IMG/VR virus record: IMGVR_UViG_3300049794_000047
Strand: one strand, 5' to 3'
DNA: 64,000 nt
Origin: a virus
Taxonomy: Duplodnaviria > Caudoviricetes
The position numbers and the translations under genes are program-made. Positions 39,412-63,198 of the stretch are shown piece after piece; the first letter of the stretch is position 1, and every line of letters begins with the position of its first letter. The notes beneath the pieces were generated by a model. The model made no database searches, had not been told where the DNA came from, and saw only the letters and a program-made list of their open reading frames with translations.

Positions 39412-39562
39412 TTAGCGATCCTCGACGGAGAAGCGACAGCGATTCAATGTCACACGGGCGCAGTACGACATCGTGGACACCCCTCGCCGCATCCTGGCAG
39501 GGGAACAGAACCACAGCGGCCCGCCGACGGTTGCAACCCGCCGACGAGCCAAGGAGTCCACG

Positions 39563-39880: not shown

Positions 39881-40325
39881 GTTTCTGTTTCGCGCGTGTC
39901 TGCTGATCTGGGTCGGCAAGACGGCAACACACGTTCACGATATAACGGTCGTGAACGTCTCGATCACGCGTCCGTCGCGAACGATCGCGATCCCGCGGCT
40001 ACCCGAGAGTACGCCCCACGGGCCGTCCCAGTAGTAGAGGGAGTCACCGGGTCGACAGACGCTGCGGATGAGGCGGGGAGGATGCTGCTTGCCCTCGAAG
40101 TCTATCCATCCCCCGCCGCGTTGGAGGACCAGCTCGTCGCGTTGCCATGGATCGAGGTCCGGTCGCGCGGCGATCACGTCGGGTGTGAGCGGATAAAGCG
40201 TCAGTCCTTGGTGATTGATCATGGGATGTCCTTAGCCAGTTGATTCCCTTCGGGTTCGCGAAGCTGGGAGAGACAGTGGACTTGATTGGGAGGCCGGCGC
40301 TTCCAGTCATCGACGAATCCTCTTA

Positions 40326-40411
40326 GGGGCTGGACTTTATTAACTTGGGCATTTGCCCGATTTTCGGACGAAGATCCACCCGAAATGACCAGGTTATTTC
40401 GTTCCAGCCCC
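40326..40411 (+). mobile_element. 86-bp MITE copy (TSD TTA)
   Basis: The TSD is the stop codon of the 40412 gene. Confidence 0.93.
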
Positions 40412-42492: not shown

Positions 42493-43191
42493 TCACCGCT
42501 CGTCGCGCTGACGCTTGAGCCAGCGCAGGCGGTGCTTCTTGATGACGTTCTCCCTGAAGTGCGCGACGAAGGTCTCGCGGCCGGTGATGAAGTCCGCATC
42601 GACGAGGCTCTGCGTGACCTGCTCGTCGGAGCGACCGAACCGCTGCTGCTCGGCGGCGAGGTAATCGCGCGCGACGGAGGGTGCCCGTCCCCCATCGTGG
42701 CGGCGCTGGTGGACCAGTTGATACTCGTAGACCGCAACGTGCGCGTTCAGCGTCTCGGCACAGTCCAGGAGCAGTCCGCCCTGGCGATGCCAGTGCACTG
42801 GCAGTGGACCGAGTTGCTCGTCGAGGGTGTCGACGAGCGCGAGGTCGCCGTGCTCCGTCGCGAACTTCGCGCGCAGTCGCCTGACGACCTCCGACTGCCC
42901 GTGCCGCCCGAGTTCCCTCGGATCGGTCCAGGTCCCCCGCTCAAGGCGCCGGGCGAGGCGGAAGACGTCCAGCGCCTCGCTCTCCAGCGCGTCCACGAGC
43001 TTGAGCGCCTGCAGCCGGATCTTCTTGCTCTCCAGCTTGGACAGCTCCAGGAACATGTTGAGGGCGTCGCGCCACGTCCTGGACGGCGGCGGCGGCGGTT
43101 CGGCGGCTGGCGACTCGACGCGCCGTGTCGACGAGTTGCCCCGGCCTCGTCGGCGGGGCTTGCCCCACGTTTTCTTGCGCTTCCCTGCCAC
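42493..43191 (-). CDS. hypothetical protein
   Basis: 232-aa ORF with a basic N-terminus. Confidence 0.55.
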   Translation of the reverse strand: MAGKRKKTWGKPRRRGRGNSSTRRVESPAAEPPPPPSRTWRDALNMFLELSKLESKKIRLQALKLVDALESEALDVFRLARRLERGTWTDPRELGRHGQSEVVRRLRAKFATEHGDLALVDTLDEQLGPLPVHWHRQGGLLLDCAETLNAHVAVYEYQLVHQRRHDGGRAPSVARDYLAAEQQRFGRSDEQVTQSLVDADFITGRETFVAHFRENVIKKHRLRWLKRQRDER

Positions 43192-43642
43192 CCGGCGCGA
43201 TCATCCGACCGTCAGATCCCGGGACCAAGAAAACGCATCGGGACGCCCCACGAACGAACCGGGTGCCCGGGGCGATCCCTGATCTAGGGGCGCCCCACCT
43301 GAACTAGGGGCAGACGCTGGAGTGACTGAACAGGCGCGGGACGCTAGCCCTCCGGTTAGGGGGCATGATCACGCGATCGAGAGGCACGCAGGCGTTCTGA
43401 GGCAACGCCCCGCGAGATGCAAACCTCGCTCGAGAAGATCCGTGAGCTCCATGTTCAGGACTGGGATCGCCCCTGGCCAGGCGCGAATTTTGGCAAGGTG
43501 CTGGTAGGGCGGGCGATCAATGCAGCCCTCGCGGAGTTTCGCGCGCCGAAGAAGGGATAGCCTGCCCGTTCAAGGGCGGCCACGAGAACGAAAGCGCGCC
43601 GTCCCCCCCGGGAGCTGCCTGGCGCCTGGCACCGCCCTTCGA

Positions 43643-44260
43643 TCAGAACAGCATGCTGGAGATCTTGTGCTCGATTTTCGCGAGGCGCCCTGCAAGATCT
43701 TCCACGTGCCTCTCGTAGTTGTATGGCGGCAGCGTGTATCCGCGCTCACGGGAGCGATTGCCGCTCCAACTGTTCAAAAGAGCCTGTCGCCGCTCGGCGT
43801 TGAAGCTGCTGCCGGGAAGGACCCACACGTTCGCATCGCCCATACTCCAGACCTGGCGCAGCCCCCGTCCGTGTGGATCGGGAAACTCCTCCTCGAGCGT
43901 TGGCGAGGGTACGGCGAGTTTCTCCACTTCACGCCATGCCATGCGCGCGCGGGCGTGCTCGTCGCGGGCGACGGCGAGCTCAGCGCGCAGCTTCGATCGC
44001 GTCTTCGCCGCGGAAACGGCACTCTTGAGTCGAGACTGTACCTCCATTGTCTCACCTTTCGCGCACCCCGATCCGATGTTCGCGCGCCGCCCGTTGGACA
44101 GCTCGACGTCCATGTGGATCTCGTGCTCGTGGCAGCAGCGATCGCACGGGCGAAGATCGCCCGATCCGGGCACGGGCACCCAGCGGTCGTCGATCTCGAT
44201 GCGATCCCCGCGTGTCGCGCACGTCGATGATGCGCGAAATAGTCGGAATCGTTGGCAACT
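43643..44260 (-). CDS. Zn-binding hypothetical protein
   Basis: CDRC..HE..GSGCA; start uncertain. Confidence 0.55.
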   Translation of the reverse strand, partial: SCQRFRLFRASSTCATRGDRIEIDDRWVPVPGSGDLRPCDRCCHEHEIHMDVELSNGRRANIGSGCAKGETMEVQSRLKSAVSAAKTRSKLRAELAVARDEHARARMAWREVEKLAVPSPTLEEEFPDPHGRGLRQVWSMGDANVWVLPGSSFNAERRQALLNSWSGNRSRERGYTLPPYNYERHVEDLAGRLAKIEHKISSMLF

Positions 44261-44277
44261 TGGTCACCACGACGGCC

Positions 44278-44580
44278 TCAGTGCGTCTTTTCCCAGTGAT
44301 CGCGTGCACGCTCCCACATATCGAGCTGACGCGAGTCTTTAACCTCGTCCATGTACCAGGGGAGCCCAGGAAATTCGGCCTTCCAGGCGCTGATCTCTTT
44401 CTCGTGTGCGCTCAGACGCGGACGTCTGGCCGCATGCGCGCCGAGCAGCGCGAGACCGATGCCCGCCAGACCAACACCACCGAGCATCCACGGCGCGATC
44501 GAGCGTCCAGAGGGTTCGGAGGCTTCTGTCCCGATGTGCGGGCGAGAGCCGTACTGACCGCGCTCGTTCGTGAACGCCAT
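44278..44580 (-). CDS. small membrane protein
   Basis: TM segment WMLGGVGLAGIGLALLGA. Confidence 0.6.
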   Translation of the reverse strand: MAFTNERGQYGSRPHIGTEASEPSGRSIAPWMLGGVGLAGIGLALLGAHAARRPRLSAHEKEISAWKAEFPGLPWYMDEVKDSRQLDMWERARDHWEKTH

Positions 44581-45862
44581 GGATCGAGTCTACCTCGGGT
44601 GTCCTATGATCAGAAGGGCACCCCTCACGTCGCCCCCCCCACAACGACGGTTACAGCCCCCGATCGGCGACCTCCGTCAGCCGCCGCTGCCCCAGGGTAC
44701 CTACATGGACCTTCAGTTGTCGACGACCAGCGTGATGCCTTGCATGCCGTTCCATGGGTACGGCGGCTTGTCACGCCATATGTTATCGGGGGGCACCTGA
44801 ATTTTTGCCGCTAGTTCATCAAGGTACCCTTGTGCGCCCTCGAGCGAGGGGGCGCCCGTCGTGTGGTGCATCTTGCTGCGCAGCCTGACGGCCCGGACAG
44901 CGGCAACGTCTTGCACGGGTTCGGGTGGTGGAGCTTCCTCAAAGAAGGCCACGTGATACGTCCCGGCCTCCACGTGGTGGAGGATCATGAGGACGTCGAG
45001 TGCTGCCGCTGTGTACGTGCCCTCACCGTTACTGATCAACATGGATTTTCTCCCAGTTCAAAGATCGAGACAGTCATCGTGGCGCCTTGTTACGTATTCC
45101 GTTGAGGAGCGCAGAGCGTGCGTTGCTCCACGCGACAGCGCACTGTGCAAAAGTCTGCCGCCCTCTTGCAGGCGAACAGCAAACTTTTGTTGTCCGTTTC
45201 GCGTTTCGAGCGCATGCCTCTCTACCTGGTCGCTCTGCGCCAGGGTCAGCATATCGACGGTGGCGTGCTCGGTGAAGATCACAACCCCACCGCCCTCTCT
45301 GCCAGCACGAACCGGCGCTGCGTGCCAGGAATCTGCTGACCGTGCACCCACAACGGGTCGCCGGGTGCGAGCTCGAGCGTGAGCATCGGCTGGGGCTCGG
45401 CCACGCCGGGGGTGATCGCGATGATGGGTCGGCCGTCAGGCAGGATGTACTTGGTGCGGGTCATAAGCCAACTCAGCTGTCCGAGGGGCGTGCAGTTGCA
45501 GCCGTGATGGCTCTCCGACACAGTGCCTCAAGTCCTGACCGTGTGTGAGGCAATCGCAACAACCGACGACGGCGCAGGATGTTTCGCGCTCGGCTGTAAG
45601 AGCCAAAGGACACAGTATCCGCATCGCTGGCATCGAGTTCACCGATCTTTGGATCGAAGAACAAGTCAGGGCGCCCGCAGGGCGCCCGCAGGGCGTGAGT
45701 AACCGTCGTGAGATCGACATTGCGGCCAACTCGTAGGCTTGATAGCGTTTCGTTTCTCGATGGGAGGCCCCTTCGTTGTCCAGGCCAAACAGCACCAGAC
45801 CGATGTTTCGGCGTGGCACCGTGAGCAAGTGACCGATCTCATGCGCCGGCCACTACAGGTTA

Positions 45863-45948
45863 GGGGCTGGACTTTATTAACTTGGTCATTTGAACGATTC
45901 CCCGACGAAGATCCACCAGAAATGACCAGGTTATTTCGTTCCAGCCCC
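45863..45948 (+). mobile_element. 86-bp MITE copy (TSD TTA)
   Basis: TIRs and TSD; located at the stop of 45949..46284. Confidence 0.93.
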
Positions 45949-46852
45949 TTACCGCTTGCTCGCGTTCAGAATGGCGACACAGCGCGCACGCGCTTCGGCC
46001 CGTTCCGCGAGTTGCTTTGGGCTCGTGTCATACGTCACGCGCATCGCGGCGATACACCATGCCTTGGTGTTGAGCGAGGAGAGCGGGGGGCTACCAAGCG
46101 CGAGGATTTGCTCGTCGGTGATCGTCTCGGCAGTGACAGTACCCTTGAACCGTGCGGGATGAGAGGCCGGGTCGTTAAGGCGCGGACAAGGCTGGTAGAT
46201 CGGCACGCGGCGCTTGCCATGCAACTCATCCACGATTCGATGGCCCTTGACGGTCAGCCGTGCATGACAGACACCGCAGCGCATCTACTTGCGCTCCTGG
46301 GCGGGCCAGTCCGTGCGCGCTGCCAACGGCTTTGTACACGTCGTAGAATTCTGCCGGGATGATGTTGTTGACGATGCGCGCTGACCCGAGGCACACGCCG
46401 TACTCTTCAGTACGTTGGATGTCAACCGAATAGGTGTGATTCATACAGTGCTCCAAGGGAGCAACCAAGCCACCCTGGGTAGTTCAGTACCCGTGTCTCT
46501 GGGCCCCTGGGAAGAAACGACCATGGTCAACTCGCTCCGAACTTTGCTCCCGGCGCGAAGGCCAGGAACGCGTCGATCATCGCGATGTGGCGGGCCACTG
46601 GATCCGGGCTGGCCCATTCGGGCGGCACCGTGTAGCAGTCGTTGTCGGTCAGGCACGAATCCTCAAGGTACGCGTGACCTGCCCAGATGACCGCGTCCCA
46701 GCCAAGATCACGACAGTGCTGCTCGTACCACTCGACGATGACGGCGGCGTTCCCGCTAAACACCTTGGCACGCCCAAGGCCAGGCCCCTCAGCGTCAGGA
46801 TTGCCGACGAGCGGAAACGCTTCGAAGTGCGAGTAGAGACACAGATCGTGAC

Positions 46853-47251
46853 TCATGGAATCGCCACGTTACGGGAGGATCCGTGGAGACCGTGGCGCTG
46901 GAGCAGTCGTCGAAAGTTGGTGCGATCGAGGCCGGAGAGACGTGCCCCCGCGGAAACCGAGCCCCCTGCGCGCTCCATCACGCGAACAAGGTAATGGCGC
47001 TCGAACTCGGCCGCCGCGAGGCGCTTGGCCTCGGTGAGTGGCATCGCCAGCAACGTGTCGACATCGTCGAGCTTCGAGACCAAGGCAGACGTATCTGCGT
47101 CGATGTTGGCGGCCTGATCGGCGGCGGCGATGCTGGCGGCCTGATCGGCGGCGTCGATGCTGGCGACTTGATCGGCGGCGTCGATGCTGGCGACTTGATC
47201 GGCGGCGTCGATGCTGGCGACCTGGTCGGCGGAGATAACGAGCTGCTGCAT
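46853..47251 (-). CDS. orphan Fis-type HTH protein with 9-aa repeats
   Basis: FERHYLVRVMERAGGSVSAGARLSGLDRTNFRRLLQRHGL; QVASIDAAD x5 (27-bp repeat). Confidence 0.8.
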   Translation of the reverse strand: MQQLVISADQVASIDAADQVASIDAADQVASIDAADQAASIAAADQAANIDADTSALVSKLDDVDTLLAMPLTEAKRLAAAEFERHYLVRVMERAGGSVSAGARLSGLDRTNFRRLLQRHGLHGSSRNVAIP

Positions 47252-47427
47252 GCCGATAGACCTTGCGTTTCGCGTGCCGATCCACGCGGGGATGCAAGTC
47301 CGTGATCACAAAACCCCGGGTAGCTTCGCACCCGTGTCTGGCACTCCACACGGAGCTGCCTTTCTGTTCACAGTGCGTTGCATAATCAGCGGCCTGTCGC
47401 AAAAGCGCTCGATTGCAAAGTATGTGG

Positions 47428-47457
47428 TTGACAGGCGTTCGGATGTGAACGTAGGGT
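47428..47457 (+). promoter_or_regulatory. putative sigma70 promoter TTGACA-N18-TAGGGT
   Basis: Perfect -35 upstream of the RHH-VapE-cas12 run. Confidence 0.45.
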
Positions 47458-47466
47458 GCAGCCCTG

Positions 47467-47634
47467 ATGGTTGCCACAAAGGACAAACAAGGCTTGGCCG
47501 TGCTCGTCCAGGTAAAGATCAACCGACGCGCGGCTCACCTCCTCCGCAAGCGCGCGAAACGTGCCCTGCGTACACAGGCGAGCTACCTCCGCGCTCTCAT
47601 CTACCGCGACCTCGGACTCATTGAGGCCGATTAA
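47467..47634 (+). CDS. small ribbon-helix-helix-like regulator (55 aa)
   Basis: VLVQVKI..LLRKRAK..TQASYLRALIYRDL; below the ORF-track length cutoff. Confidence 0.55.
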   Translation: MVATKDKQGLAVLVQVKINRRAAHLLRKRAKRALRTQASYLRALIYRDLGLIEAD

Positions 47635-47720
47635 GGGGCTGGAACGAAATAACCTGGTCATTTCTGGTGGATCTTCGTCGGGGAATCGTTCAAATGACCA
47701 AGTTAATAAAGTCCAGCCCC
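47635..47720 (-). mobile_element. 86-bp MITE copy (TSD TAA)
   Basis: TIRs and TSD; located at the RHH stop codon. Confidence 0.93.
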
Positions 47721-47766
47721 TAAGAGTGTTTCGCCCTCGATGAACTGAACCTGGAGAAGCTCTCCC

Positions 47767-48453
47767 ATGACAGTTACTCAGCAAAAGGAAGCCCACAAGT
47801 CTGTAACCGACTACCTTGCCTTCATCGTGTGGGACGGTAGGCCGCGACTCGATCGCTGGCTCATCGATTACGCGGGCGCAGAGGACTCGACGCACGTCCG
47901 CATGGCGTCGCGTGTGATGCTCGTCGCGGCCGTCCGACGCGCGCGACATCCCGGGTGCCGGTTCGACCAGATGCCGGTGCTTGAGGGTCCACAGGGCTGC
48001 GGCAAGTCGAGCGCTCTCCGTGTTCTTGCCGTCGAGGCCTCTTGGTTCACCGACGAGTTTCCGTTCAATGCATCGGGGATGGCGGATGCAACCGCAGGAA
48101 AATGGATCGTCGAGGTGAACGCGTTAAATCTGTTCGATGCCGAGGCACTCAAGGCGATCTTGTCGCGAGGATACGATGCCCGCCTCAGGCCCTACACCCA
48201 CACGGGCACGCAGTTTATGCAGGTGCCGCGACAGTTCGTGCTCATTGGGACCATGAACCTGTCGCCGGTGTCTGGCTACCTCCGTGAGTCGTCAGAAAAC
48301 AGGCGCTTCTGTCCCGTACGGGTGCAGCGCTTCAATCTCGAGAAACTCCGGGCCGACCGCGATCAACTCTGGGCGGAAGCCGTGCACGTCGAGGTGTCAG
48401 GCGGGTCAGTCCGCGTCGCGAATGCTGTTGCTGGATCCCACGTGGAAGGATAA
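47767..48453 (+). CDS. VapE/VirE-like P-loop ATPase domain (stand-alone or truncated)
   Basis: WDG.PRLD.WL, LEGPQGCGKS, WFTD, GTMN, NRRF.PV and RDQLWAEA. Confidence 0.85.
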   Translation: MTVTQQKEAHKSVTDYLAFIVWDGRPRLDRWLIDYAGAEDSTHVRMASRVMLVAAVRRARHPGCRFDQMPVLEGPQGCGKSSALRVLAVEASWFTDEFPFNASGMADATAGKWIVEVNALNLFDAEALKAILSRGYDARLRPYTHTGTQFMQVPRQFVLIGTMNLSPVSGYLRESSENRRFCPVRVQRFNLEKLRADRDQLWAEAVHVEVSGGSVRVANAVAGSHVEG

Positions 48454-48457
48454 GAGG

Positions 48458-50572
48458 ATGCTCGACAATACGACCGACACGACCGCCGCCGACACGACCT
48501 CCGCCAGTACTACAACCATTCCGCCAAAAGCGCTCAAGAAGCGCGCCCGCAAGACCTCGACCAAGCCTACACGGATCTACAGCTATCGGATCTTGCCTCC
48601 TGAGGATCCAGAGCACCGGAGGCTGGTCGTCGAGCAGTTCTGGCTGGCGCACCAGTACCGTTGCCGGCTGACCGAGATCGAGATCGAGCAGCGCAGCCGC
48701 TTCCGTGCAATCGACCTGGATCACCCGCTCACGCGCGAAGCGACCTCCCACTGGGAGGCGCAGAGCGCGGCGCTCGACGCGACCTATGCGGCGCTGCGCG
48801 CAGCAAAGGCTGGCCGCGCCCCCGAGCATCGCGACGATGAAGCGATCAAGCAGCATCTGAGGTCGCTGAAGGGGGCCTGCACCAAGGCATGGCGTGACGT
48901 CAAGGCAGCGCGCGCACAGCCCGAGGTGAAGGCCCACCATCAGCCGCGCTACGCCGCGGCTCGAGAGACGACCGCTGAGCAACGCCTCGCCGCGCGAGCG
49001 TCGTTCTCTGCCAGAGGTCTGATGCACGGCACGTACATGTGCATCGAGCACGCCGTGGAACGATCCGTCGACTCGACGGGGCGCCCTCCAAAATTCCTTC
49101 GTTATGAGGGCGAGGGTTCGATTGGGCGCCAGTTGCCACGGACGCGAGACAAGAACGATCGGCTCTACAGCATTACGGCAGATGACCTCTACTCCGGGGA
49201 CGACAGTCGCGTGCGGATGACACCCCTGCCCGTGGGCTGGGAGCAATTGGCGCGGACCGCGCGGCGCCGGATCGCCAAGCCGTACCGTGGGCACGCCAAA
49301 CGTCAGCGTCACGGCGACAGTTGGCAGGAGATCCCGGCCCGCCTCAACGGTCAATACCTCGAGATGCAGTTCGGCTGGGGTCCGGCGAAGCGGCCAAGCG
49401 CCTGGATCCGTTTCCCCCTCACGCACCATCGCCGGATGCCCGAGGACGCCGAGATCTTGTGGGTGTACGTCCACCGCTGGCGCGTCGGGATCCACTACGA
49501 GTGGCGGGTGCAGCTCACAATCGAGAGTGAGACGTTTCACCGGCCACAGGTCCCGATCGCGGTCGGTGGCACCTGCGCGATCGACATTGGCTGGCGACGA
49601 ATCTTCGACACGGACGGAAGTCAGATCGGCCTGCGCGTGGCCTACCTGGTCGACGAGCATGGGCAGGAGCGCGAGATCCGCGCGCCGGACGGTCTCTGGC
49701 AGCGGCTTGCGAAGATTTACTCGATCGCGCAGATCCGCTCTCGAGAGCTCGATGCTGCACGCGATCGCCTGGTCGTCTGGATCAGCGATCGGCCGTTGCC
49801 CCCATGGTTCACCGACCGCGCCAAGGGGCTCGCGATGTGGCGAGCGCCGCGCAAAATGCAACGTCTCATTGACACCTGGCAGCGGGAGGAGAATCGTTTC
49901 GAGGACGACGCGGCGGCGCTCACCATGCTCCAGGCCTGGGCGAAGCACGATCGGCACCTCGGGAACTGGGAAGCCCACATGCGCGATCGAACGATCGCCC
50001 ACCGGCGCGAGGTGTGGCGTCAGGTCGCCGCTGAATTGGCACGCACGTACCAGACGATCCTCGTCGAGGACGGGCTGTGCCGATCGGAGGGCCGCGAGCG
50101 CCAGATGAAGATTGTGGACATCGAGGGTTGGGACAAACGTCCCCCAGAGGAGGGCGACCCGCACGAGGGGCGCGAGCAGCGTCGTCAGTCGCGGATGGCC
50201 GCGCCCGGTGAGCTGCGCCTGGCCATCTCTCACGCGACCCACAAGACTGCGTCCACTGTGATCGATGTGGCGCGAAGCAAGAAGTCGACGCGCGAGTGCT
50301 CCTGGTGCGGACACGATCAAGAGCACGCCAACTTTGCGGTCTCGATTGAGATCCAGTGTGAGGGCTGTGGGCGCAGTTGGGATCAGGACGCGAATGCAGC
50401 CCGCAATCTCCTGCACCACCGCGGTCTGACGAGTGGACAGGTACCACCGATCCCTACGAGCGGTCCTGTGCTACTCCTTGACGGGCAGGCGCGCGCACAA
50501 GGCAAACGGGGGAAACGACGCGGCGATGCAGGTAGAGGGCGTCGGCGGGAGGTTAGAGAGACGACCGTTTGA
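48458..50572 (+). CDS. cas12m: type V CRISPR effector, Cas12m (V-M/V-U1)-like, 704 aa
   Basis: QFWLAH, GEGSIGRQL, HRRMPEDAEI, AIDIGWR, WRAP, ILVED, AAPGELR, CSWCGH..CEGCG..DQDANAARN; directly followed by leader and array. Confidence 0.85.
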   Translation: MLDNTTDTTAADTTSASTTTIPPKALKKRARKTSTKPTRIYSYRILPPEDPEHRRLVVEQFWLAHQYRCRLTEIEIEQRSRFRAIDLDHPLTREATSHWEAQSAALDATYAALRAAKAGRAPEHRDDEAIKQHLRSLKGACTKAWRDVKAARAQPEVKAHHQPRYAAARETTAEQRLAARASFSARGLMHGTYMCIEHAVERSVDSTGRPPKFLRYEGEGSIGRQLPRTRDKNDRLYSITADDLYSGDDSRVRMTPLPVGWEQLARTARRRIAKPYRGHAKRQRHGDSWQEIPARLNGQYLEMQFGWGPAKRPSAWIRFPLTHHRRMPEDAEILWVYVHRWRVGIHYEWRVQLTIESETFHRPQVPIAVGGTCAIDIGWRRIFDTDGSQIGLRVAYLVDEHGQEREIRAPDGLWQRLAKIYSIAQIRSRELDAARDRLVVWISDRPLPPWFTDRAKGLAMWRAPRKMQRLIDTWQREENRFEDDAAALTMLQAWAKHDRHLGNWEAHMRDRTIAHRREVWRQVAAELARTYQTILVEDGLCRSEGRERQMKIVDIEGWDKRPPEEGDPHEGREQRRQSRMAAPGELRLAISHATHKTASTVIDVARSKKSTRECSWCGHDQEHANFAVSIEIQCEGCGRSWDQDANAARNLLHHRGLTSGQVPPIPTSGPVLLLDGQARAQGKRGKRRGDAGRGRRREVRETTV

Positions 50573-50632
50573 AGGAGGTGCTCGCGATCAGGGATGTGAG
50601 GTCGCGCGATGATAATTGAATAGTGATTGACT
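50573..50632 (+). promoter_or_regulatory. CRISPR leader A
   Basis: GGTGCTCGCGATCAG..ATGATAATTGAATAG..TGACT; homologous to the leaders ending at 54248 and 55332. Confidence 0.8.
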
Positions 50633-51258
50633 GTGATGGAGCTTGCCCGAGCGGTTGACGTTCGGGACGCGTCGCGCTGCCGATTCACAGCGACGGCGGG
50701 GGATAGAGCTTGCCCGAGCGGTTGACGTTCGGGACCTGCGATAGTCGCCCACACGCAGGCGGCTGCAGGCGGTGATAGAGCTTGCCCGAGCGGTTGACGT
50801 TCGGGACCGCATAGCATGTCTGGCACACGGACCTGCGCGCACCGGGTGATAGAACTTGCCCGAGCGGTTGACGTTCGGGACGGTGAGCCGATCCCACGGA
50901 TCCACGTCGCGCCGCGGAGGTGATAGAGCTTGCCCGAGCGGTTGACGTTCGGGACTCGTGCCAGATCGAGAGACCATCGTGTGATAGAGCTTGCCCGAAC
51001 GGTTGACGTTCGGGACTCCGGCTCGTCTCCGTAGCGGACGTACACTGTGCTTAGAGCTTGCCTGAGCGGTTGACGTTCGGGACGAACGCGGTCAGGCGTG
51101 CCGACGGCGGGTACGAGATGTTTGCCCGAGCGGTTGACGTTCGGGACTCCGGCGAAAGAATCTTCCTGGGAGTCTGCCCGAGCGGTTGACGTTTTGGGAC
51201 CTGACCACGTCCACGAAGCCGCGTGATTGAGCCTGCCCGAGGGGTCGACGTTCGGGAC
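50633..51258 (+). CRISPR. array A, 10 repeats GTGATAGAGCTTGCCCGAGCGGTTGACGTTCGGGAC
   Basis: 36-bp repeats with unique spacers; degeneration increases distally. Confidence 0.95.
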
Positions 51259-51414
51259 TGTCAGTGCGAAACTCATGCTGTCCGCAGGATGCACGTGCTG
51301 GAACTTACCAAGCGGTCGTCAGCCCCTGCGCGCGGTTCTATGCTTCGGGTTGATGGGAGGTGCCCGCACAAGATAAGCACAGGGAACAACACAGCTTTGC
51401 AGGGAAAGGTGGCT

Positions 51415-51804
51415 ATGGATCTGGCCGATCTGGGAGTGATGGAGCCTGCCCAAACGGTTGACGTTCGGGACGACGCGGACCCGCGCGCATCACGACGTCC
51501 GCGAGCTGTCGGCCGACTGACCAGCAAGGAGCAGAGGGCCGTGCGGACGGCGCTGCGGTTCCTGCGGCTGCGCGTCGGCGCCTGGGGGCCGCTGGCGAAG
51601 GCCCTGCGGTACGAGTGGGACAGCATCCAGAAGGTCGCCACCGGCAAGCGGGCCGTTACCCCAGCGCTCGCGCTGCGGGTGGCGCGGTTCGCCGGGATCC
51701 CCATGGACGAGCTGCTCGCGGGGCAGTGGCTCTCGGCACGGGTCTGCCCGCACTGCGGCCACCCGCCCGAGGACTTCGTCGACGAGGAGACGATGGTCGA
51801 GTAG
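51415..51804 (+). CDS. HTH-zinc-ribbon protein read in frame through a CRISPR repeat
   Basis: VMEPAQTVDVRD (repeat) fused to RLTSKEQRAVRTALRFL..CPHCGHPPEDFVDEETMVE; start uncertain. Confidence 0.7.
   Translation: MDLADLGVMEPAQTVDVRDDADPRASRRPRAVGRLTSKEQRAVRTALRFLRLRVGAWGPLAKALRYEWDSIQKVATGKRAVTPALALRVARFAGIPMDELLAGQWLSARVCPHCGHPPEDFVDEETMVE
51436..51471 (+). CRISPR. single repeat preceded by cas12-tail remnant (first repeat of interrupted array B)
   Basis: GTGATGGAGCCTGCCCAAACGGTTGACGTTCGGGAC. Confidence 0.85.
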
Positions 51805-51885
51805 GTCAAGGCAACGAAATTGGAGCAGTGAGGTCGTTTCGTACCTGACGTGATAGAATCGAGCGAATCACGTTCTGGAGATCCC

Positions 51886-53151
51886 ATGATCAATCGCCTC
51901 GGACTCTACCGACCCCTCCGCCTCCCGCTGCCGATGTCGAACGGGTTTAACATCCTGCCGACGCAGACGGCACAGATCACCGTCCATCCACAGACGAACA
52001 AGTTCTACCCGGAGCGCCTCCTGATCAAGGAGGCCGCTCACTGGAAGATCGACGCGATCCGCGTCGGGGATCGAGACAGTGCCCTCGTCCAGAATCTCCC
52101 AGGGTCGATGTTCGCGCCCGACGCACCGGGGCGCTTCCCGGGTTGCGGCGAGATCGAGATCCCGCCCGGCGGAGAACTGATTGTCGGGGTGACATACACC
52201 GGCCTCCGCGAGGCCGGAATCCCTTTCGAGGCGTGCGTGTTCGGATCCGACGATCGGACGACGATGCCGGTCGCATCGACCTCTCGCCGGGGGGAAAAGA
52301 AGATCGCAACGGCGCGGAGCGAACGCTCGATACCGCACAACCGCTCAACGAAGCTGTCCACGGATCCGATGAAGCGCGATGCGTGGCCGAGTCGTCTCGT
52401 GATCAAGGACGCCTCCGACTGGGTCGTCAACGACGTCCGCGTAGGCAAGGTGTCGATCTTCGCGCAGGCCGGGGACGTCCCAGGAAGCATGTTCTCCGAG
52501 GACGCCAAGAACGCGGGGTCCGCGATCTGCCTGGGGCGCCTGGTCGCCGGAGACAAGTTCTCGGTCATCGCGACGTACATGGGAACCGCGTCCGACGCTG
52601 AGTTTGTGTACGAACTCTACGAAACCCATGCCGAATCCGAAGCTGCCGACCTTCCAATCGCAGTGATCCTGCCGATGTCGACGGGAATCCCGATCCTGCC
52701 GAGCACGTCGGCGCAGATCACGGGCCGATGCCAACCACCGGATGGCTACTTTCGTGGGATTGGTCCCCGCCAGGGCTTCATAGCCGAGCGGATCGTCGTC
52801 GAAGGAGGCGCTGACTGGGTCTTCAACGATGTCAGGATTGGGCGCACGTCGCAATTCGCGCAGGTCGGGGACGTCCCAGGTCTCGCGTTCAGTTCCGGGA
52901 CCCTGGGAGGCGCGGTGTCCTTCGACGCTGCGCAGGCCGGGATCGACGTCGCCATCGTGACGACTCACATCGGACCTTGCGAGGTCGGAGCTGCCTTCGT
53001 CTGCGGAATCCTGGGTAGCCTCGTCGACCTGGCTGAGGTCGACACGTCGCCCAGACGCGGCCGGATCCTGTCAGCCCAGCGAGTCGACTTGTTCAGGCGC
53101 GAGCCCCGTGCCGTCATACTCGACGACCACGCCACGGCGCTGGAGCGATGA
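51886..53151 (+). CDS. beta-rich repeat-domain protein (3 units)
   Basis: ILPTQTAQITVHPQ..PERLLI; DWVVNDVRVG..GDVPG; ILPSTSAQIT..DWVFNDVRIG; GGAG RBS. Confidence 0.8.
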   Translation: MINRLGLYRPLRLPLPMSNGFNILPTQTAQITVHPQTNKFYPERLLIKEAAHWKIDAIRVGDRDSALVQNLPGSMFAPDAPGRFPGCGEIEIPPGGELIVGVTYTGLREAGIPFEACVFGSDDRTTMPVASTSRRGEKKIATARSERSIPHNRSTKLSTDPMKRDAWPSRLVIKDASDWVVNDVRVGKVSIFAQAGDVPGSMFSEDAKNAGSAICLGRLVAGDKFSVIATYMGTASDAEFVYELYETHAESEAADLPIAVILPMSTGIPILPSTSAQITGRCQPPDGYFRGIGPRQGFIAERIVVEGGADWVFNDVRIGRTSQFAQVGDVPGLAFSSGTLGGAVSFDAAQAGIDVAIVTTHIGPCEVGAAFVCGILGSLVDLAEVDTSPRRGRILSAQRVDLFRREPRAVILDDHATALER

Positions 53152-53399
53152 TCTTCGCTGAGAGGGATCCTAGAACTGTCGCTGCCAGGGCGTGCGTTGA
53201 TCACCATGAGCAAGGAGCCGACGAGTGAACGATGATTCCGCAACTTCGTGCTCGGGGACGTGTCGGAAAGTCATCTTTCCCTTTTCCTTCTGTAGTTGGT
53301 ACAAGGAGTCCGATGTGCATCGAGGGTGGGGCTGGAGCGACTTCTCCGTTGAGAAGCTGATCGTCAAGACTCGGGAGGAAGAAGATCCAATTGTCAACC

Positions 53400-53675
53400 T
53401 CCAAATCGACGGGCGCCCGGTCCTCTCTTGCTTGCAGATCGCATCCGAGCCGATGACACAGCGTGTGGACGAGAAGGGGATGAAGTGGTTCGCCAAGACG
53501 TGGGTGCCGGAGGTCGCCACCACGGTGTCGCGGCGCGGCCCGACGACAGCGTTACAGGCCTCGGTCGACGAGCGCAACCAGTGGACCGGCGAAGAGGGGG
53601 CGTTCTACGGCGACATGTTCGTGCCGATCGATCAGCCGCTCGAGTGGGTCGCGTGCCGCGGCGGCCCCCGCTCCG
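53400..53675 (+). pseudogene. fragment of a myxobacterial-type secreted protein
   Basis: VSRRG..EEGAFYGDMF..ACRG pattern, cut off at a repeat remnant. Confidence 0.4.
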
Positions 53676-53679
53676 TCAC

Positions 53680-54077
53680 CCCGAACGTTCGGGACCTCGG
53701 CCTGCTCGCTGGCATGCTCCGCAGGGCAAATGTGATAGAGCCTGCCCGAACGATTGACGCTCGGGACACCAAGCGCGCGAGGGAACTACAGGCACGAATT
53801 CGAGGGACAGCATCTGCCCGAACGGTTGACGTTCGGGATGAAGGCAAGTGGTCGCCCTCTGGGATAGAGCCTGCCCGAACGGTTGACGTTCGGGACGGAG
53901 CGGCCAAGCGCGAAGCAGCGCGTGGGGCGTCAAGGTGATAGAGCTTGCCCGAGCAGTTGACATTCGGGACCAACCGGCAGAAGTGCGCCGATCGCGCGTC
54001 GTGATAGAGCCTACCCGAGCGTTTGACAGGGGTCGGCGTACATGATGGAATCTGCCTGAACGGTTGACGTTCGGGAC
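53680..54077 (+). CRISPR. array B, about 7 degenerate repeats
   Basis: Same repeat family; first repeat loop-deleted (CCCGAACGTTCGGGAC). Confidence 0.85.
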
Positions 54078-54748
54078 GACAGGTAGATCTTGACCGCTCA
54101 GAATTCAGACTTCAATGATGTCGCAGGAAACGACGCGGAGACTCAGGTAAAAAGCACTGTCGTGACAGGGGGAGGGCGCGAGACCCCTTTGAATAGAGTC
54201 CGTGCAAGTGTAGTAAAGAATGTAATGGCAATTGAATAGCTGTTGACTGTTGATGGGGCTTGCCCGAGCGGTTGACGTTCGGGCAATCTGTACGACGCGC
54301 TGTGCCCAGGCTGGGTGATGGGGCCTGCCCGAACGACACCCGTTCGGGACCCCTGAGGCACGTCGCGGCTGATGTTGGCACTACGCGTGATAGAGTTTGC
54401 CCAAAACGGTTGACGTTTGGGGCCGGCAACCTGGCTGGTCAGGATCACGGGAGTGATAGAGCCTGCCCGAGCGGTTGACGTTCGGGACCACCGCGCGAGG
54501 ATGACGACACGACAGATTAACCGGCCTGCCCGAGCGGTTGACGTTTGGGACGATGAGCACTTCCTTGGGGCGCTAGAGCCTGTCCGAACGGTTGATATTG
54601 GTAATGCGGATACTGCTCGCGACAGCCGCTTGTACCGGCTGTAATAGAGCCCGCCCGAGCGGTTGACGTTTGGGACAAGGAGACAGCAACTGCGTACGAA
54701 GTGCTGGGCAATGTGATAGAGCCTGTTCGAACGGTTGACGTTCGGGAC

Positions 54749-54783
54749 AACCCGGCGGTGCTGAAAGCGCTGTCGGTTTCTTT
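54749..54783 (+). terminator. terminator-like spacer, copy 1
   Basis: 11-bp stem, GAA loop, TTTCTTT tail. Confidence 0.55.
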
Positions 54784-54836
54784 GTGATAGCACCTGCCCG
54801 AACGGTTGACGTTCGGGACATCATCGGCGGAAGTTA

Positions 54837-54922
54837 GGGGCTGGAACGAAATAACCTGGTCATTTCTGGTGGATCTTCGTCGGGGAATCGTTCAAATGAC
54901 CAAGTTAATAAAGTCCAGCCCC
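54837..54922 (-). mobile_element. 86-bp MITE inserted in a CRISPR spacer (TSD TTA)
   Basis: TIRs and TSD between the repeats at 54784 and 54928. Confidence 0.93.
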
Positions 54923-55332
54923 TTAGCGAGATGGAGCTTGTCCGAGCGGTTGACGTTCGGGACGTAAGGCTCGGCCACCTGCCGGGTCGTGCTGGAGCTC
55001 GCCCGAGCGGTTGACGTTCGGGACTGCGGGTCTTTGCCCCGCTTTGGCGGGGCCTCGATCGCAAGATAGAGCTTGCCCGAGCGGTTGACGTTCGGGATCG
55101 CAATCCAAGCAGGGGTGCTCGTCGGTCAACCGGGCTGCGTGACGACGCCAACCCACGCGAGCGGTCCTATGCGTCGAGTTGATGGGAAGGCGCTCGCACA
55201 AGATAAGCACAAGAAACGACACAGCTTTGCAGGTAAGGTCAATGTCGAAATGTTGAAGAGCCGTCTGTTTGAATGGGGTGCTCGCGATCAGTGCAGTAAG
55301 ATCGCGAAATGATAATCGAATAGTTGTTAGCT

Positions 55333-56835
55333 GTGATGGAGCCTGCCCGAACGGTTGACGTTTGGGACAAGTGGGACGGTGACGACGTGCCGGCCTTCAT
55401 GCGTGTGATGGAGCCTGCCCAAACGGTTGACGTTTGGGACGCTGGATGCGCGATGAGGACGACGAGCAGGCTCGAAGTGATGGAGCCTGCCCAAACGGTT
55501 GACGTTTGGGACCTACGCGAATGCGAGCGGTACTTTTGAATCACCGAGGCGTGATGGAGCCTGCCCAAACGGTTGACGTTTGGGATCCGGCGTGCGGACC
55601 GTGCGCCTGTGGTGCAAGCGGGAGTGATGGAGCCTGCCCAAACGGTTGACGTTTGGGACCCAAAGTCACCGAGGCGAACCGACACGGGAGATACGGCGTG
55701 ATGGAGCCTGCCCGAACGGTTGACGTTTGGGACGGGTGGACAGTGATCACCGCCATCGTAGCGCTCGCGTGATGGAGCCTGCCCGAACGGTTGACGTTTG
55801 GGACAGCCGTCGCCACGGATCCACCGCATCCACCTGCCTCATGTGATGGAGCCTGCCCGAACGGTTGACGTTTGGGACGAGAAGCAGGTCGCGGACACGC
55901 GGCGGCTGGTCAACGTGATGGAGCCTGCCCGAGCGGTTGACGTTTGGGACGCGGACAGCCCGACGCCCCCCTGATGAGCCTGCCCGAACGGTTGACGTTT
56001 GGGACGCGCCGTACGCCGTCGTGGGCACGGTGAATCCATTGGTGATGGGGCCTGCCCGAACGGTTGACGTGTGGGACGAGCTGGTGAGCACTTCAAACCC
56101 GGCATGCCGACTTGTGATGGCGCCTGCCCGAACGGTTGACGTTTGGGACTCGTCGCCACGCGTCCGATGCTCCCGGAAGACGCACGTGATGGAGCCTGCC
56201 CGAACGGTTGACGTTTGGGACCGGTGATGGGGCGTCATGGATCGTCGCCCTTCACGCGTGATGGAGCCTGTCCGAACGGTTGACGTTCGGGACAACCCGA
56301 CGGTGCTGAAAGTGCCGTCGGTTTCTTTGTGATAGCACCTGTCCGAACGGTTGACGTTCGGGACGCCGCGTGGCTCCGCGTGTGATAGAGCCTGCCTGAA
56401 CGGTTGACGTTTGGGGCCAACGTAAGGACGCGGCGCGTAGATCTGAATCGCCGTTGTGATAGAGCCTGCCTGAACGGTTGAGGCCAGGAGCGTGCGCGAT
56501 CGACGTCGCCATGCTCGCGGTGATAGAGCCTGCCCGAACGGTTGATGCTTCGGGACTATCCGACTGAACTGCACAAGCGCGGATTCAACGGCATGATGGA
56601 GACTGCCCGAATGGTTGACGTTTAGGACCAGGCTGCGCCGACAGCAACCGCGCGCCGGTTAAGCGTGATGGAGCCTGCCCGCGCGGTTGACGCTCGGGAC
56701 ACCTGTACGACGCGATGCGAGGAATGGACACAGGCCGGGTGATGGAGTTTGTCTAAGCGACTGACGTTATGGACGTGAGAATTCCGACGCGCACAAGATG
56801 GAGTGCGCTAATAGGCGCTTGCCCCAATGGTTGAA
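55333..56835 (+). CRISPR. array D, about 22 repeats GTGATGGAGCCTGCCC(G/A)AACGGTTGACGTTTGGGAC, own leader about 55160-55332
   Basis: Best-conserved block; mostly 35-38 bp spacers. Confidence 0.95.
56294..56328 (+). terminator. terminator-like spacer, copy 2
   Basis: Same hairpin with 3 pairing-compatible substitutions. Confidence 0.55.
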
Positions 56836-56873
56836 CCCCTCGACTACTTCACCAAACTCGCGAGGAAAACTGC

Positions 56874-57577
56874 GTGATAGAGCCTGCCCAAACGGTTGAC
56901 GTTTGGGACAACAGCGGGCACTCTAACAGACTCGGCGCGCGCCTGGTGATAGAACCTGCCCAAACGGTTGACGTTTTGGGACGCATGAGTCTCCACTCCC
57001 ACATCGACCTAGCTTTTGTGATAGAGTCTGCCCAAACGGTTGACGTTTGGGACCAGGTGCTCGGCATTGGGCCCGTCGATGTCGCCGCTGGTGATAGAGC
57101 CTGCCCAAACGGTTGACGTTTGGGACAAGTCAAGCCTGGGTGACGTGATAGAGCCTGCCCAAACGTTTGACGTTTGGGACAAGAGATCCACCAGGCGATC
57201 GCGCCGCTGGCACGCGTGATAGAGCCTGCCCAAACGGTTGACGTTTGGGACCGTCCCACAACACTGCCAACTACGTCGCCGCGTGATCGTGATGGAGCCT
57301 GCCCAAACGGTTGACGTTTGGGACAACCGTACGAACCTCGCGAGTTGTGATGGAGCCTGCTCGAACGGTTGACGTTCGGGACCTTACGAACCCACGGGAA
57401 AACGAGGATCGCTTTCTGGTGATGGAGCCTGCTCGAGCGGTTAATGTTTGGAACGGTCGGGTTTGTGGTTGATTGCCTTGACGGCAGCGTGTGATGGAGC
57501 CTACTCGAACGGTTGACGTTCGGGGACACCTGTACGACGCGCGGCACAGGATAGAGTCTGCCCAAACGGTTGACGCT
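56874..57577 (+). CRISPR. array E, about 11 repeats GTGATAGAGCCTGCCCAAACGGTTGACGTTTGGGAC
   Basis: Repeat conservation resets after the decayed end of D; no leader visible. Confidence 0.92.
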
Positions 57578-58318: not shown

Positions 58319-58930
58319 ATGGCTTACGACGGACTCACAACCGGACAGGCGGCCCTCTACTTGAAACGTCATCCCAAGACCCTTCAGGGATGGGACCGTG
58401 ACGGTTCGCTTCCCGCCAAACGCACGTCGACAGGACGACGCTACTGGCTGAAGACGGACCTGGATCGTTATCTCGGCAAAACGAGTCTCGTGGTAGAGCG
58501 TGTGAAGATCGCCTATTGTCGTGTCTCCTCCCAGGCACAACGGGCTGACCTCAAAAATCAGAGGGCCGTCCTGGATGACTTCTGCGCGAAACAGGGCTTC
58601 TCGAATGTCGAGCACATCGCAGAGATCGGCGGGGGCCTGAACTTCAAACGAAAACTCTTTCTGTCGATCGTGGATCGTGTCGTCAGCGGCGCGGTGTCGC
58701 ATCTCGTGATTGCACACAGGGATCGCTTGACACGGTTCGGCTTTGATCTGCTCAAGCACCTCTGTGACACACATGATTGTGCACTGCACGCCCTTGACCA
58801 AGAGAAACTCTCGCCAGAGCGAGAGATGGGCGAAGACCTGAGGACGATCGTCCACTGCTTCTCGGCACGGCTCGAGGGTCTGCGAAACTACCACAAGTCG
58901 CTTCAGGCGGCTCTAGCGAGCAGGACGTAG
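58319..58930 (+). CDS. tnpA: IS607-family serine recombinase TnpA (no adjacent tnpB)
   Basis: MerR-like HTH, AYCRVSS..QRADLKNQ, GGGLNFKRK and RDRLTRFGF; IS607 left end at about 58281. Confidence 0.92.
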   Translation: MAYDGLTTGQAALYLKRHPKTLQGWDRDGSLPAKRTSTGRRYWLKTDLDRYLGKTSLVVERVKIAYCRVSSQAQRADLKNQRAVLDDFCAKQGFSNVEHIAEIGGGLNFKRKLFLSIVDRVVSGAVSHLVIAHRDRLTRFGFDLLKHLCDTHDCALHALDQEKLSPEREMGEDLRTIVHCFSARLEGLRNYHKSLQAALASRT

Positions 58931-61270: not shown

Positions 61271-62569
61271 AAGAATAGCGGCGACTGAATATTTTTGGGG
61301 CCGGTACTGGGAACAGCGTCGCAGCTGACCAAGCAACCGTCTCCTCGCAGCTAACGAGCAGCTTCAAAGCCCCGGCCAGTGTGTTAGGATGAGCCTATGA
61401 CCACCCAGGAACATGCTCAGAAAAGTGACGGTGCCCGTGCGAGGCAGGCGCCGGGCCTTTTGGAATGCGATCATTGCGGTGGCGGCGGTCGACATTGGTA
61501 TATTCCGCTGACAGATGAAACGCTCTGTCACTCGTGTTACGAGTGGCTACTCGATCGACTGAGCCCAGAAGGCGCGGCGGCGCCTGGTCAAGTCGCAGCC
61601 CGGTTTCTGGCGGGACTTGGCGACGATTCCGCTCGGCTTCCAACTCCTCGAAGAAGCGCGGGCGCAGCGCTTCTTGTGCCAGATCCTCTCGAAGAGCCCA
61701 CGCAAGATCCCGGCCGCCGCCGGCGAGAAGATTGAATGGTGTGTCAAGCACGTGCCTGACCTGCCCATCGTGCTGTCCGAAGACAAGGGCCTCGTCTACG
61801 GCAAAGCTCTTGTGCGACGATTGGCCTGAGTACATCGAGCGGTGGCTCACCTGGCGTCCGCGCGGCCTCGTGGTTGCGGTTGCGGTGGCTCAGCGGTGGA
61901 ACGTCGGCATCGACCAACGGTTCCCCAAGAACGTCGTTAGGTTCGACGGGTCGAATTTCGCTTATGTTCGAGAGCGCATGCAGGAGATTCGCGCGACGGC
62001 GGGTCAGGCATAAACATGGATGTGCAGGGAACGGATCGGTCTATACACGCAGCTGCGAGGGGTACGTCTACATCGGCGACCAGGGCATCGAAGTCTGTGA
62101 GACCTGCGGGGGCTGTACATGCTGCCGTCACGCGGACGTCGACCACCGCAAGGCTCGCTACAGGTGCTGGCACAATCGTGAGAGCACGGCGTGTCTGCTC
62201 GTTGGTAAAAAGCAACTTCAACCATGACTGCAAGAGAGACCAACGCCCATGAGAACCCGGGCGTTGTCTGCCTTGCAACTAGACAGGACACCCGACATGG
62301 AAACCAAGATGACTCTGGCACAAGACGAAGGTCCAGGCCCAACGCCGACATTCGACATCACGCTTGGGCACAGCGCTCGGCACTCACAGGGTCTCCTGCG
62401 ACTTCGTGCCGGGATCGAGATCTCCGGCACCACTGAGGCCACCCTGACCGCGCGCCCGACCAGCGCGTTTTCGCCCGCGCAGGCTGGCGATTTTACCGCC
62501 ATTCGCGCGTCGATTTGACATCATTGATTTGAAGGTTGGGTTTGTCAGTGTGTTCGCTGACGACAGTAA

Positions 62570-62655
62570 GGGGCTGGACTTTATTAACTTGGTCATTTGA
62601 ACGATTCCCCGACGAAGATCCACCAGAAATGACCAGGTTATTTCGTTCCAGCCCC
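62570..62655 (+). mobile_element. 86-bp MITE copy (TSD TAA)
   Basis: TIRs and TSD. Confidence 0.93.
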
Positions 62656-63198
62656 TAACGGTGCCGTCGCGAGGCATGCTGACGGCAGTACCTGTCTATA
62701 CTGTCCCGCGCGCCGGTACGAGGCCGTCTATCGATTCAAGCACACAACGTCAGTGCTAGACATCTTGGCCAACCCTGGACCTGCGCGGGCGCTCGTTACC
62801 TCGTCCGCGCCCAGCATACTCGGTCACGAGATCTCGGCGAGGACCTGCCATGCATGGCAGGACATTTCGATCACGGTGCGCGCCTATGAGGGCCACCCCA
62901 GTGACTTCGAGGCGATTCTCCTGGGTGACTTTCGAGAAGCGGGAATCTGTCGCCAGGGGCACGACGGCGAGGACATTTTCGTTGACGATGTAGTCAGGGC
63001 ATACCTCATGACACCGGACGGACGGTACGACCCCACGCTCGACGACGTGCTTCGCCACGTGCAGGGCCTTTGCCCTGCCTGGGTAACAATGCGCGATGAC
63101 GTGAGCCGTCTCGTCGAGCTGTACACGTCGGGTGGTTGACCTGGCCTCTCACGATCGCTGAACGAGGCCACCGCGTCAGGGACTGGCAACCCCGCGAG

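Follow-up and report, generated by a model that had tools for sequence, protein, structure and literature searches.

How does a mobile genetic element fill and keep a CRISPR memory of 60–110 units when no spacer-acquisition genes are seen beside it? The question is raised by a locus in IMG/VR virus record IMGVR_UViG_3300049794_000047, of which we analysed a stretch of 64,000 nucleotides (nt), hereafter the window; in it a gene for a 704-aa effector, cas12m, is followed on the same strand by a 7-kb stack of repeats. Using a combination of profile searches, structure modelling, repeat covariation and comparison with related metagenomic loci, we arrive at a reading that we hold to be probable, namely that a very large element, extrachromosomal or virus-like, of a probable soil Kofleriaceae carries a type V-M CRISPR–Cas12m locus, and that this locus serves the silencing of competitors guided by CRISPR RNA (crRNA). 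What stands out is not the enzyme but the multi-leader arrays of 60–110 repeats with no spacer-acquisition genes in view. Of particular interest are the way in which arrays of this size come to be filled when adaptation genes are lacking, and a possible cutting of DNA by the ~700-aa subclade to which the effector belongs.

The effector, its RuvC residues and the repeat hairpin

The cas12m gene (48458–50572, + strand; protein P0005) begins at an ATG with AAGAGG 6 nt upstream, stops at 50572 and encodes a RuvC domain with a CxxC...CxxC zinc ribbon; the sole Pfam match of the protein is PF07282, the Cas12f1-like TNB zinc ribbon. A phmmer search of the PDB places Cas12m at the top (23vw, E 5.7e-43), with Cas12m2 at 5.5e-25 and GoCas12m (8pm4) at 6.5e-17. 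A profile of the effector family (A1, 42 members) matches all four solved Cas12m proteins (23vw, 8hhl/8hio, 8pm4 and 23vu) over nearly their full length, at profile positions ~17–578 and E 1e-157 to 2e-69, and reaches TnpB, Fanzor, Cas12f and CasPhi in the C-terminal RuvC/TNB part only, at E 1.5e-14 or weaker. The AlphaFold2 model of the effector (mean predicted local distance difference test score 81.6, predicted template-modelling score 0.68) is disordered only at residues 1–28, 540–569 and 662–704. Foldseek ranks four Cas12m cryo-electron-microscopy structures, from Cas12m2 and GoCas12m complexes, first to fourth (E 2.6e-30 to 2.7e-24; template-modelling scores 0.57–0.67, target-normalised), followed by Cas12f and TnpB starting at E 7.5e-12. 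The Cas12m fold comprises a WED domain, a long helical REC domain, a RuvC domain with a helical insertion and a zinc-ribbon TNB domain. By full-length homology and modelled fold, the effector is a Cas12m and not an ordinary TnpB. This bears out the Cas12m-like assignment in a first-pass annotation of this DNA, which had named a clustering with ordinary TnpB as a result that would refute it; profile and fold both side with Cas12m instead.

The RuvC triad is intact, with D376 (AIDIG), E537 (ILVED) and D644 (DQDAN), and all three residues are invariant in ten aligned close relatives; farther out in the family, the first position is occupied by D or N. Triads known in Cas12m comprise HEK/HQK, HDD and DED/NED/DND (PMC10442227), and the state seen here matches that of clades 3 (DED/NED) and 4 (DED/DND/NED) as listed in the same work (PMC10442227). 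The first-pass annotation was right that D-E-D is kept; for a Cas12m, such a triad is not unusual. Its further suggestion of a possibly new branch is fair only in the sense of a distinct ~700-aa subclade within the DED/NED part of the Cas12m family, a placement that draws on profile, fold and RuvC-motif evidence.

A repeat hidden Markov model (HMM), built from twelve clean repeats, finds 62–63 repeats of 36 nt in the window, all on the + strand between 50633 and 57575 and grouped in five or six blocks, so that the number (~63), coordinates and block structure first annotated are correct. The first repeat begins 61 nt past the cas12m stop, on the same strand. No significant match lies elsewhere in the 64 kb and none on the reverse strand, and no anti-repeat was found there; solely from this missing anti-repeat we infer that the locus lacks a trans-activating crRNA (tracrRNA). 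The repeat carries a hairpin that adjoins the spacer, CCCGAACG / GTTGA / CGTTCGGG, with an 8-bp stem, a GTTGA loop and predicted energies of -12.9 to -15.3 kcal/mol. The change of the stem from CCCGAACG/CGTTCGGG to CCCAAACG/CGTTTGGG is real, with G-U intermediates on the way. In a tabulation of both arms for 219 repeats, drawn from the window and from the loci of six relatives, non-pairs are few, G-U pairs are many, and about six of the eight stem positions show full compensation across the window, L001, L003, L006 and L007: position 4 goes from G-C to A-U in the window, position 6 from G-U to G-C in the related loci L003 and L006, and in the 45% identical system of locus L007, with arms CTCGGACG/CGTCCGAG, position 2 goes from C-G to U-A and position 5 from A-U to G-C. 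Read from the opposite strand, the many G-U pairs would turn into A-C mismatches, so that the stem pairs fully on the + strand only. The transcript of that strand is therefore expected to be the functional RNA, and the first-pass claim of a covarying hairpin serving as a + strand crRNA handle is thereby supported.

The array stack, its upstream genes and its carrier

The stack, all of it on the + strand, opens with leader unit A (50445–50632), which consists of the last ~125 nt of cas12m and a 60-nt leader and ends in a conserved AT-rich block before the first repeat; diverged copies of this unit lie at 51317–51406, ~54150–54250 and 55146–55332, each ahead of a new repeat run. Sub-array A (50633–51258) has 10 repeats, the distal ones truncated, and its first six spacers are common to strain L005. 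The repeat HMM and sequence comparison then reveal a truncated leader copy with a lone repeat (51317–51471, the repeat at 51436–51471), after which a 2.2-kb cassette with genes at 51517–53151 interrupts the stack. Sub-array B (53685–54077) has ~7 repeats, several of them degenerate, and sub-array C (54250–54819), with a leader-like unit ahead of it, has ~10 and includes a terminator-like spacer at 54749–54783. Inside the array, sequence comparison identifies a copy of an element resembling a miniature inverted-repeat transposable element (MITE; 54836–54926), followed by sub-array D (54929–55097, 3 repeats). Leader unit E (55146–55332), again a cas12m tail with a leader copy, is 74–81% identical to unit A and precedes sub-array E (55333–57575, ~32 repeats), in which the 14 repeats ahead of a second terminator-like spacer (56294–56328) are mostly near-consensus and the later ones mostly degenerate. 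The stack is thus broken by a MITE, a gene cassette and a duplicated, terminator-like spacer, and this multi-leader, terminator-punctuated layout offers a concrete system for studying array upkeep.

We extracted 56 spacers of 15–60 nt (mode 36 nt), with one duplicated pair only (54749 and 56294) and one only that is shared with a relative's array. The duplicated spacer (54749–54783 and 56294–56328) forms an 11-bp hairpin followed by TTTCTTT, the three differences between its copies preserve pairing, and it looks like an intrinsic terminator. The spacers at 54286–54314, 56701–56738 and 57527–57547 have their first 12–14 nt in common (CTGTACGACGCG core) and diverge thereafter, as if they came from homologous sites in related targets. 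In the search for targets, the whole 7-kb stack had no megablast match in collections of phages and plasmids, and four 24-nt spacer seeds had no exact counterpart in IMG/VR. A BLAST comparison of 362 spacers of the family with 1.5 Mb of related and viral loci gave chance-level matches of 16–21 nt only, and no convincing protospacer was found in 141 Kofleriaceae genomes. Two candidates were rejected: spacer 57181 agrees exactly with L177 over 19 nt, but the extended match covers no more than 25/35 positions and misses the 5′ end, and the host matches of spacer 56492 (22–26 nt) concern a spacer behind a truncated repeat and look like GC-rich coincidence. Spacer GC content is 61–65%, that of the elements 61–63% and that of sampled host DNA 70–73%; being like the elements and unlike the host, the spacers weakly favour related mobile elements as their source. 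A spacer in L003 (18931–18965) resembles, at a statistically borderline 27/30 positions, one in a different-repeat array of L007 (2331–2360), a likeness that could reflect a shared target.

Relatives of the effector at ~700 aa form ~40 protein clusters sharing 64–99% identity, all of them metagenomic, and an exhaustive search yields 819 clusters at E <1e-30, mostly of 555–650 aa. The relatives' loci that were examined lie on contigs of 105–461 kb with small genes and hardly any Pfam matches, in keeping with the setting on a mobile genetic element that was first proposed. With the same repeat, L001 has 80 copies, L003 107, L006 63 and L002 only 4, and leader restarts also occur within the arrays of L001, L003 and L005. 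Taken together, five independent loci combine this repeat with arrays of 63–107 units and with leader restarts inside them. A scan of Joint Genome Institute metagenome contigs for the repeat gave ten contigs, in which cas12m adjoins the array wherever the flank suffices; between soil samples, the arrays show block deletions and alternative spacers. On the 461-kb metagenomic contig L007 there are two genes resembling cas12m; each is followed by a different repeat type, in arrays of ~7.9 kb and 2.5 kb (features at 1–1697, 2003–9888, 10001–11938, 12072–14600 and 15027–15733). The same clade includes variants of ~813 aa (P0013, P0014, P0016, P0018 and P0020, the gene in L006 at 10001–12442) with a ~100-residue insertion in the N-terminal helical region that matches Pfam PF03050 (IS66 transposase), possibly only a coiled coil. 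A single-protein pattern search for close relatives found none in IMG/VR and none in GTDB genomes. More distant Cas12m relatives, at 24–41% identity, are present on at least 72 predicted viral contigs of IMG/VR, most with an array of 0.1–2.4 kb directly downstream; in five such records, of which four are at least 90% complete, Cas1 is missing throughout. The pairing of Cas12m and array is thus common on predicted viral contigs, and it is the 6–9 kb arrays that are peculiar to the present group.

None of 76 predicted open reading frames (ORFs) of the window, scanned against Pfam, matches the Cas1, Cas2 or Cas4 families, and for the loci of six relatives the precomputed Pfam annotation likewise shows no cas genes up to a distance of 10 kb. 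The absence of cas1/2/4 that had first been noted stands for the window; it is normal for V-U1/V-M loci.

Upstream of cas12m lie, besides a MITE-like element, three features on the + strand. The sequence at 47428–47457 (TTGACA, 18 nt, TAGGGT; it ends 9 nt before the start codon of the next gene) might be a sigma-70-like promoter, a candidate read by eye that falls under the threshold in a consensus scan. The next gene (47467–47634) encodes a 55-aa protein, P0004, and is 66–86% identical upstream of cas12m in L001, L002, L003/L004, L006 and L181, standing directly ahead of it in L001, L003 and L006. This protein looks like a ribbon–helix–helix (RHH) protein by its sequence pattern and by its look-alikes in the Atlas, where language-model features place it with CopG/Arc/NikA/HicB RHH clusters at a score of 0.95. 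It has no Pfam match at E up to 1 save one unrelated weak one and no PDB profile match, and its monomer model, an extended segment followed by a single unbroken helix at residues 20–49, is uninformative on fold; RHH regulators of the CopG/Arc/MetJ type have two helices behind an N-terminal beta strand. Of the RHH regulator first annotated beside cas12m, the upstream position holds and is conserved, and the RHH identity stays at the level of pattern and look-alikes. On IMG/VR contig L103, too, an RHH-like ORF stands ahead of a cas12m gene, here one of 41% identity, and a few others have small helix–turn–helix (HTH) ORFs in front of them.

The third feature, a 228-aa VapE-like P-loop ORF (P0003; 47767–48453), ends 4 nt before the cas12m start. 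Its Pfam match (PF05272, E 6.4e-48, profile positions 5–190/217) confirms the VapE ATPase domain first annotated and covers the P-loop domain only; the N-terminal primase/DNA-binding part and the C-terminal winged helix of VapE/D5-type primase-helicases are missing, so that, as far as its sequence tells, the ORF is a domain-only fragment or minimal form. By tblastn it occurs only in the window and in L005, which is collinear with the window at 98.2% nt identity over 42757–51084, and it is absent from L001, L002, L003, L006 and L181. This distribution indicates a lineage-specific insertion, together with a MITE-like element, between the small gene and cas12m. A recurrent VapE–cas12m linkage, considered in the first-pass annotation, thus falls away, the arrangement being essentially unique to this contig and its near-identical strain. 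From the comparison of loci, the conserved companion of cas12m is the RHH-like gene and the VapE-like ORF is incidental.

The MITE-like element at this site (47634–47724, + strand, 91 nt) is inserted at the stop codon of the RHH-like gene and among the relatives' loci occurs only in L005. The 91-nt hairpin (-38.4 kcal/mol, z -5.2) is present eight times in the window, seven times in full and once in part, at 91–100% identity; the other copies are at 54836–54926 and 39325–39415 on the + strand, at 45860–45949, 62569–62656, 40322–40412 and 11071–11158 on the - strand, and, as the partial copy, at 12373–12403. In soil contigs the element has 25–40 times the depth of its flanks, and its 3′ part matches several contigs of one Kofleriaceae metagenome-assembled genome (MAG) at 86–87%. 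Within the cassette, the HTH-like gene (51517–51807, ~95 aa, with a C-terminal CxxC) has 81–84% nt identity to multicopy sequences in three Kofleriaceae MAGs, which suggests recent exchange between host and element; in one of these MAGs it stands after a 415-aa SWIM/transposase-like ORF. The second cassette gene, for a 433-aa beta-rich repeat protein (51850–53151), belongs to a family with an internal repeat unit of ~110 aa and further members at 37312–38382, 8908–9642, 40448–41143 and 4361–4744, all on the - strand; the family has no Pfam and no PHROG match.

The host is probably a soil Kofleriaceae (Myxococcota), to judge by sequence similarity: the closest relatives of an IS4/IS5-like DDE transposase (34107–36149, - strand), which lies in an island of 71.6% GC within a window of 62%, are in Kofleriaceae MAGs at 85–94% protein identity, with one copy at 90%, the HTH gene and part of the MITE match such MAGs as well, and soil metagenomes contain the locus. 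A search of 138 Kofleriaceae genomes, with few candidates scored in each, showed no array of this repeat. The element may be a virus or a plasmid; PHROGs gave no structural phage family among ten large window proteins, and Rfam and tRNA scans of the window gave no match. The window also holds two ordinary IS605-type TnpB genes with all three Pfam domains (1049–2452, - strand; 14916–16193, + strand), and an IS607-like serine recombinase gene (58319–58930, + strand) followed by a short RNase T-like ORF.

A proposed mechanism and its alternatives

We suggest that the locus is probably functional as a type V-M system and that its likeliest mechanism, by analogy, is the known Cas12m mode, in which self-processed crRNAs and tight DNA binding are directed against competitors. 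Crucial to this analogy is the behaviour of characterised proteins. Four D-E-D orthologs, and also H-D-D and N-D-D ones, bind DNA in dependence on a protospacer-adjacent motif (PAM) without cleaving it (PMC11013384), and the same orthologs process pre-crRNA without need of RuvC (PMC11013384); in all, crRNA-guided binding without cleavage and RuvC-independent processing are known for at least eight orthologs (PMC11013384, PMC10442227). An N-D-D ortholog has likewise been found to bind without cutting, with a mature crRNA of ~33 nt of repeat and ~17 nt of guide (bioRxiv 10.64898/2026.03.26.714355). In the present locus, the + strand arrays would be transcribed from one or more leader units, and Cas12m would recognise the 3′ hairpin of the 36-nt repeats and process the transcript itself, without tracrRNA, into crRNAs of perhaps ~50 nt that use only the first ~17–18 nt of each spacer. 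The complex would then bind PAM-flanked DNA tightly and block transcription or replication of its target, most likely competing mobile elements of the same host, while the 55-aa RHH-like protein would most likely act as transcriptional regulator of the operon. The 7-kb stack may have arisen by duplication and recombination of a module of cas12m 3′ tail, leader and array, to be broken later by the MITE and the 2.2-kb cassette, with much of the distal part now decaying and the VapE-like ORF a passenger insertion.

Several observations weigh against this reading. No protospacer was found in any search, and hence neither the target class nor the PAM was derived, and the roles first proposed, inter-element conflict and host gene silencing, stay conjectural. 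With many repeats truncated or mutated and two terminator-like spacers among them, a large part of the stack may be silent. The window and L005 have diverged by 1.8% in DNA and still agree in all six leader-proximal spacers, which implies slow acquisition, or none, over the time concerned. The RHH-like assignment of the upstream gene has a weak basis; the search for adaptation genes covers the 64-kb window and 10 kb around the relatives' loci, and cas1/cas2 may lie elsewhere on the element; and the intact D-E-D triad makes nuclease activity possible in the ~700-aa subclade.

This last point leads to the proposal that the subclade is an active RNA-guided DNA nuclease that cuts rival elements. 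The triad is invariant among the ten aligned members of the close clade, the active sites of clades 3 and 4 might support two-metal hydrolysis (PMC10442227), and the effector has extra segments (1–37, 540–569 and 655–704) that are missing from the characterised proteins; conversely, the orthologs of D-E-D, H-D-D and N-D-D type described above bind without cleaving double-stranded DNA, and Cas12m2 remained unable to cut after its HDD motif had been converted to DED (PMC10442227), so that we regard a cutting enzyme as unlikely. It is quite improbable that the arrays mainly silence or reprogram host genes of Kofleriaceae during infection or carriage. The best lead in our searches, spacer 56078–56113, does match a Kofleriaceae MAG, at a site with no annotated family (G002:C153:21241–21272; L100 642–672), in 28/31 positions from spacer position 1, with TTC, a known type of Cas12m PAM, directly 5′ of the match; however, this match is near chance level, low-E matches in that host search were far more numerous than expected, no other host match was found in the 138 family genomes, with few candidates scored per genome, and the GC content of the spacers is element-like, not host-like. 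A role for the VapE-like ATPase as a functional partner of Cas12m, for example as a helicase aiding interference or spacer capture, would fit its shared strand, the 4-nt gap, an intact Walker A motif and a protein 100% conserved in L005, yet the ORF is absent from five relatives' loci, adjoins a MITE insertion and retains the P-loop core only, and we consider such a partnership very improbable.

The idea that we are dealing with an ordinary TnpB of a transposon and with repeats other than CRISPR, for which one might point to a Pfam search that finds the TNB zinc ribbon only and to the two true TnpB genes in the window, can be given practically no weight. It is refuted by the A1 profile and Foldseek results, and in addition the effector scores 31.5 bits with the NCBIfam guided_TnpB model (NF040570) against a cut-off of 100, the window's own TnpBs resemble it across the last ~150 residues only, and repeats and unique spacers are regularly laid out. 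A more serious, if doubtful, alternative holds that the stack is mostly a relic: expression would be confined to leader-proximal units in one or two sub-arrays, and everything else would be unselected recombination debris. Truncated distal repeats, spacer lengths that vary from 16 to 38 nt, the inserted MITE and cassette, the terminator-like spacers at 54749 and 56294 with mostly degenerate repeats beyond them, and blocks deleted or replaced between soil samples all fit such decay. Against it, the stem is still paired in variant repeats, non-pairs being rare and G-U or compensatory changes common, arrays of 63–107 repeats are kept in at least four diverged relatives, and guides of ~17 nt would tolerate short spacers. 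We retain the reading of a competitor-silencing type V-M locus. A bolder extension of it, that huge Kofleriaceae-associated elements build and keep arrays of 60–110 spacers with no Cas1–Cas2 anywhere, by Cas1-independent spacer gain, and that the D-E-D effector is possibly the first cutting Cas12m, is speculative and in our view improbable; candidate routes for such gain are recombinational exchange of modules of cas12m tail, leader and array between co-infecting relatives, or an unknown integrase.

Comparison with known systems

With the TnpB proteins of IS200/IS605 elements, which are about 400 aa long, the effector has a common C-terminal core of RuvC and zinc ribbon; unlike them, it has no OrfB_IS605 or HTH Pfam match, its similarity is confined to ~150 residues, and in place of transposon ends or an omega-RNA it is accompanied by a CRISPR array. 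Closer in setting are the Cas12j/CasPhi systems of huge phages, which likewise pair a compact type V effector and an array with a very large element, lack cas1/cas2 and have a presumed role in competing with further mobile elements. CasPhi is a DNA-cutting enzyme with small arrays. It belongs to a different effector family, to which the present protein shows a weak match only (profile E 2e-5, Foldseek E 1.8e-6 to 6.8e-5).

A September 2026 preprint describes MvCas12m, a 610-aa D-E-D protein with eight spacers from the myxophage MV-1, as the first phage Cas12m (bioRxiv 10.64898/2026.09.14.751636), a claim that is tempered by how common Cas12m is on predicted viral contigs. The two systems, compared here by description only, share a D-E-D Cas12m, a Myxococcota element or virus, an adjacent array, the lack of adaptation genes and the lack of identified protospacers. 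In contrast to MvCas12m, with its eight spacers and recognisable phage genome, the present locus has a 704-aa effector and ~60 spacers distributed over several sub-arrays, and the scan of window ORFs recognised no phage hallmark genes.

Most closely, the locus resembles the type V-M (formerly V-U1) systems of MmCas12m2, GoCas12m, MsCas12m and PmCas12m, with which its effector shares full-length sequence and fold homology. As in characterised Cas12m loci, the array follows directly after the gene on the same strand, the 36-nt repeat has a 3′ hairpin, there is neither a tracrRNA-like anti-repeat nor cas1/2/4, and the triad is D-E-D as in clades 3 and 4. Cas12m is the natural "CRISPR interference" enzyme and, being compact, a tool in base and epigenome editing; the present subclade extends it by a D-E-D branch that is diverged and longer and whose crRNA handle is well defined. 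The subclade differs from the characterised proteins in being ~100 residues longer, through basic tails at both the N and the C terminus and 30 residues inserted after E537, in being only ~30% identical to them, in its conserved RHH-like upstream gene, and in its carriers, elements of 100–460 kb with unknown gene content. Above all, its arrays of 60–110 repeats, with internal leader restarts and terminator-like spacers, contrast with the small arrays described so far.

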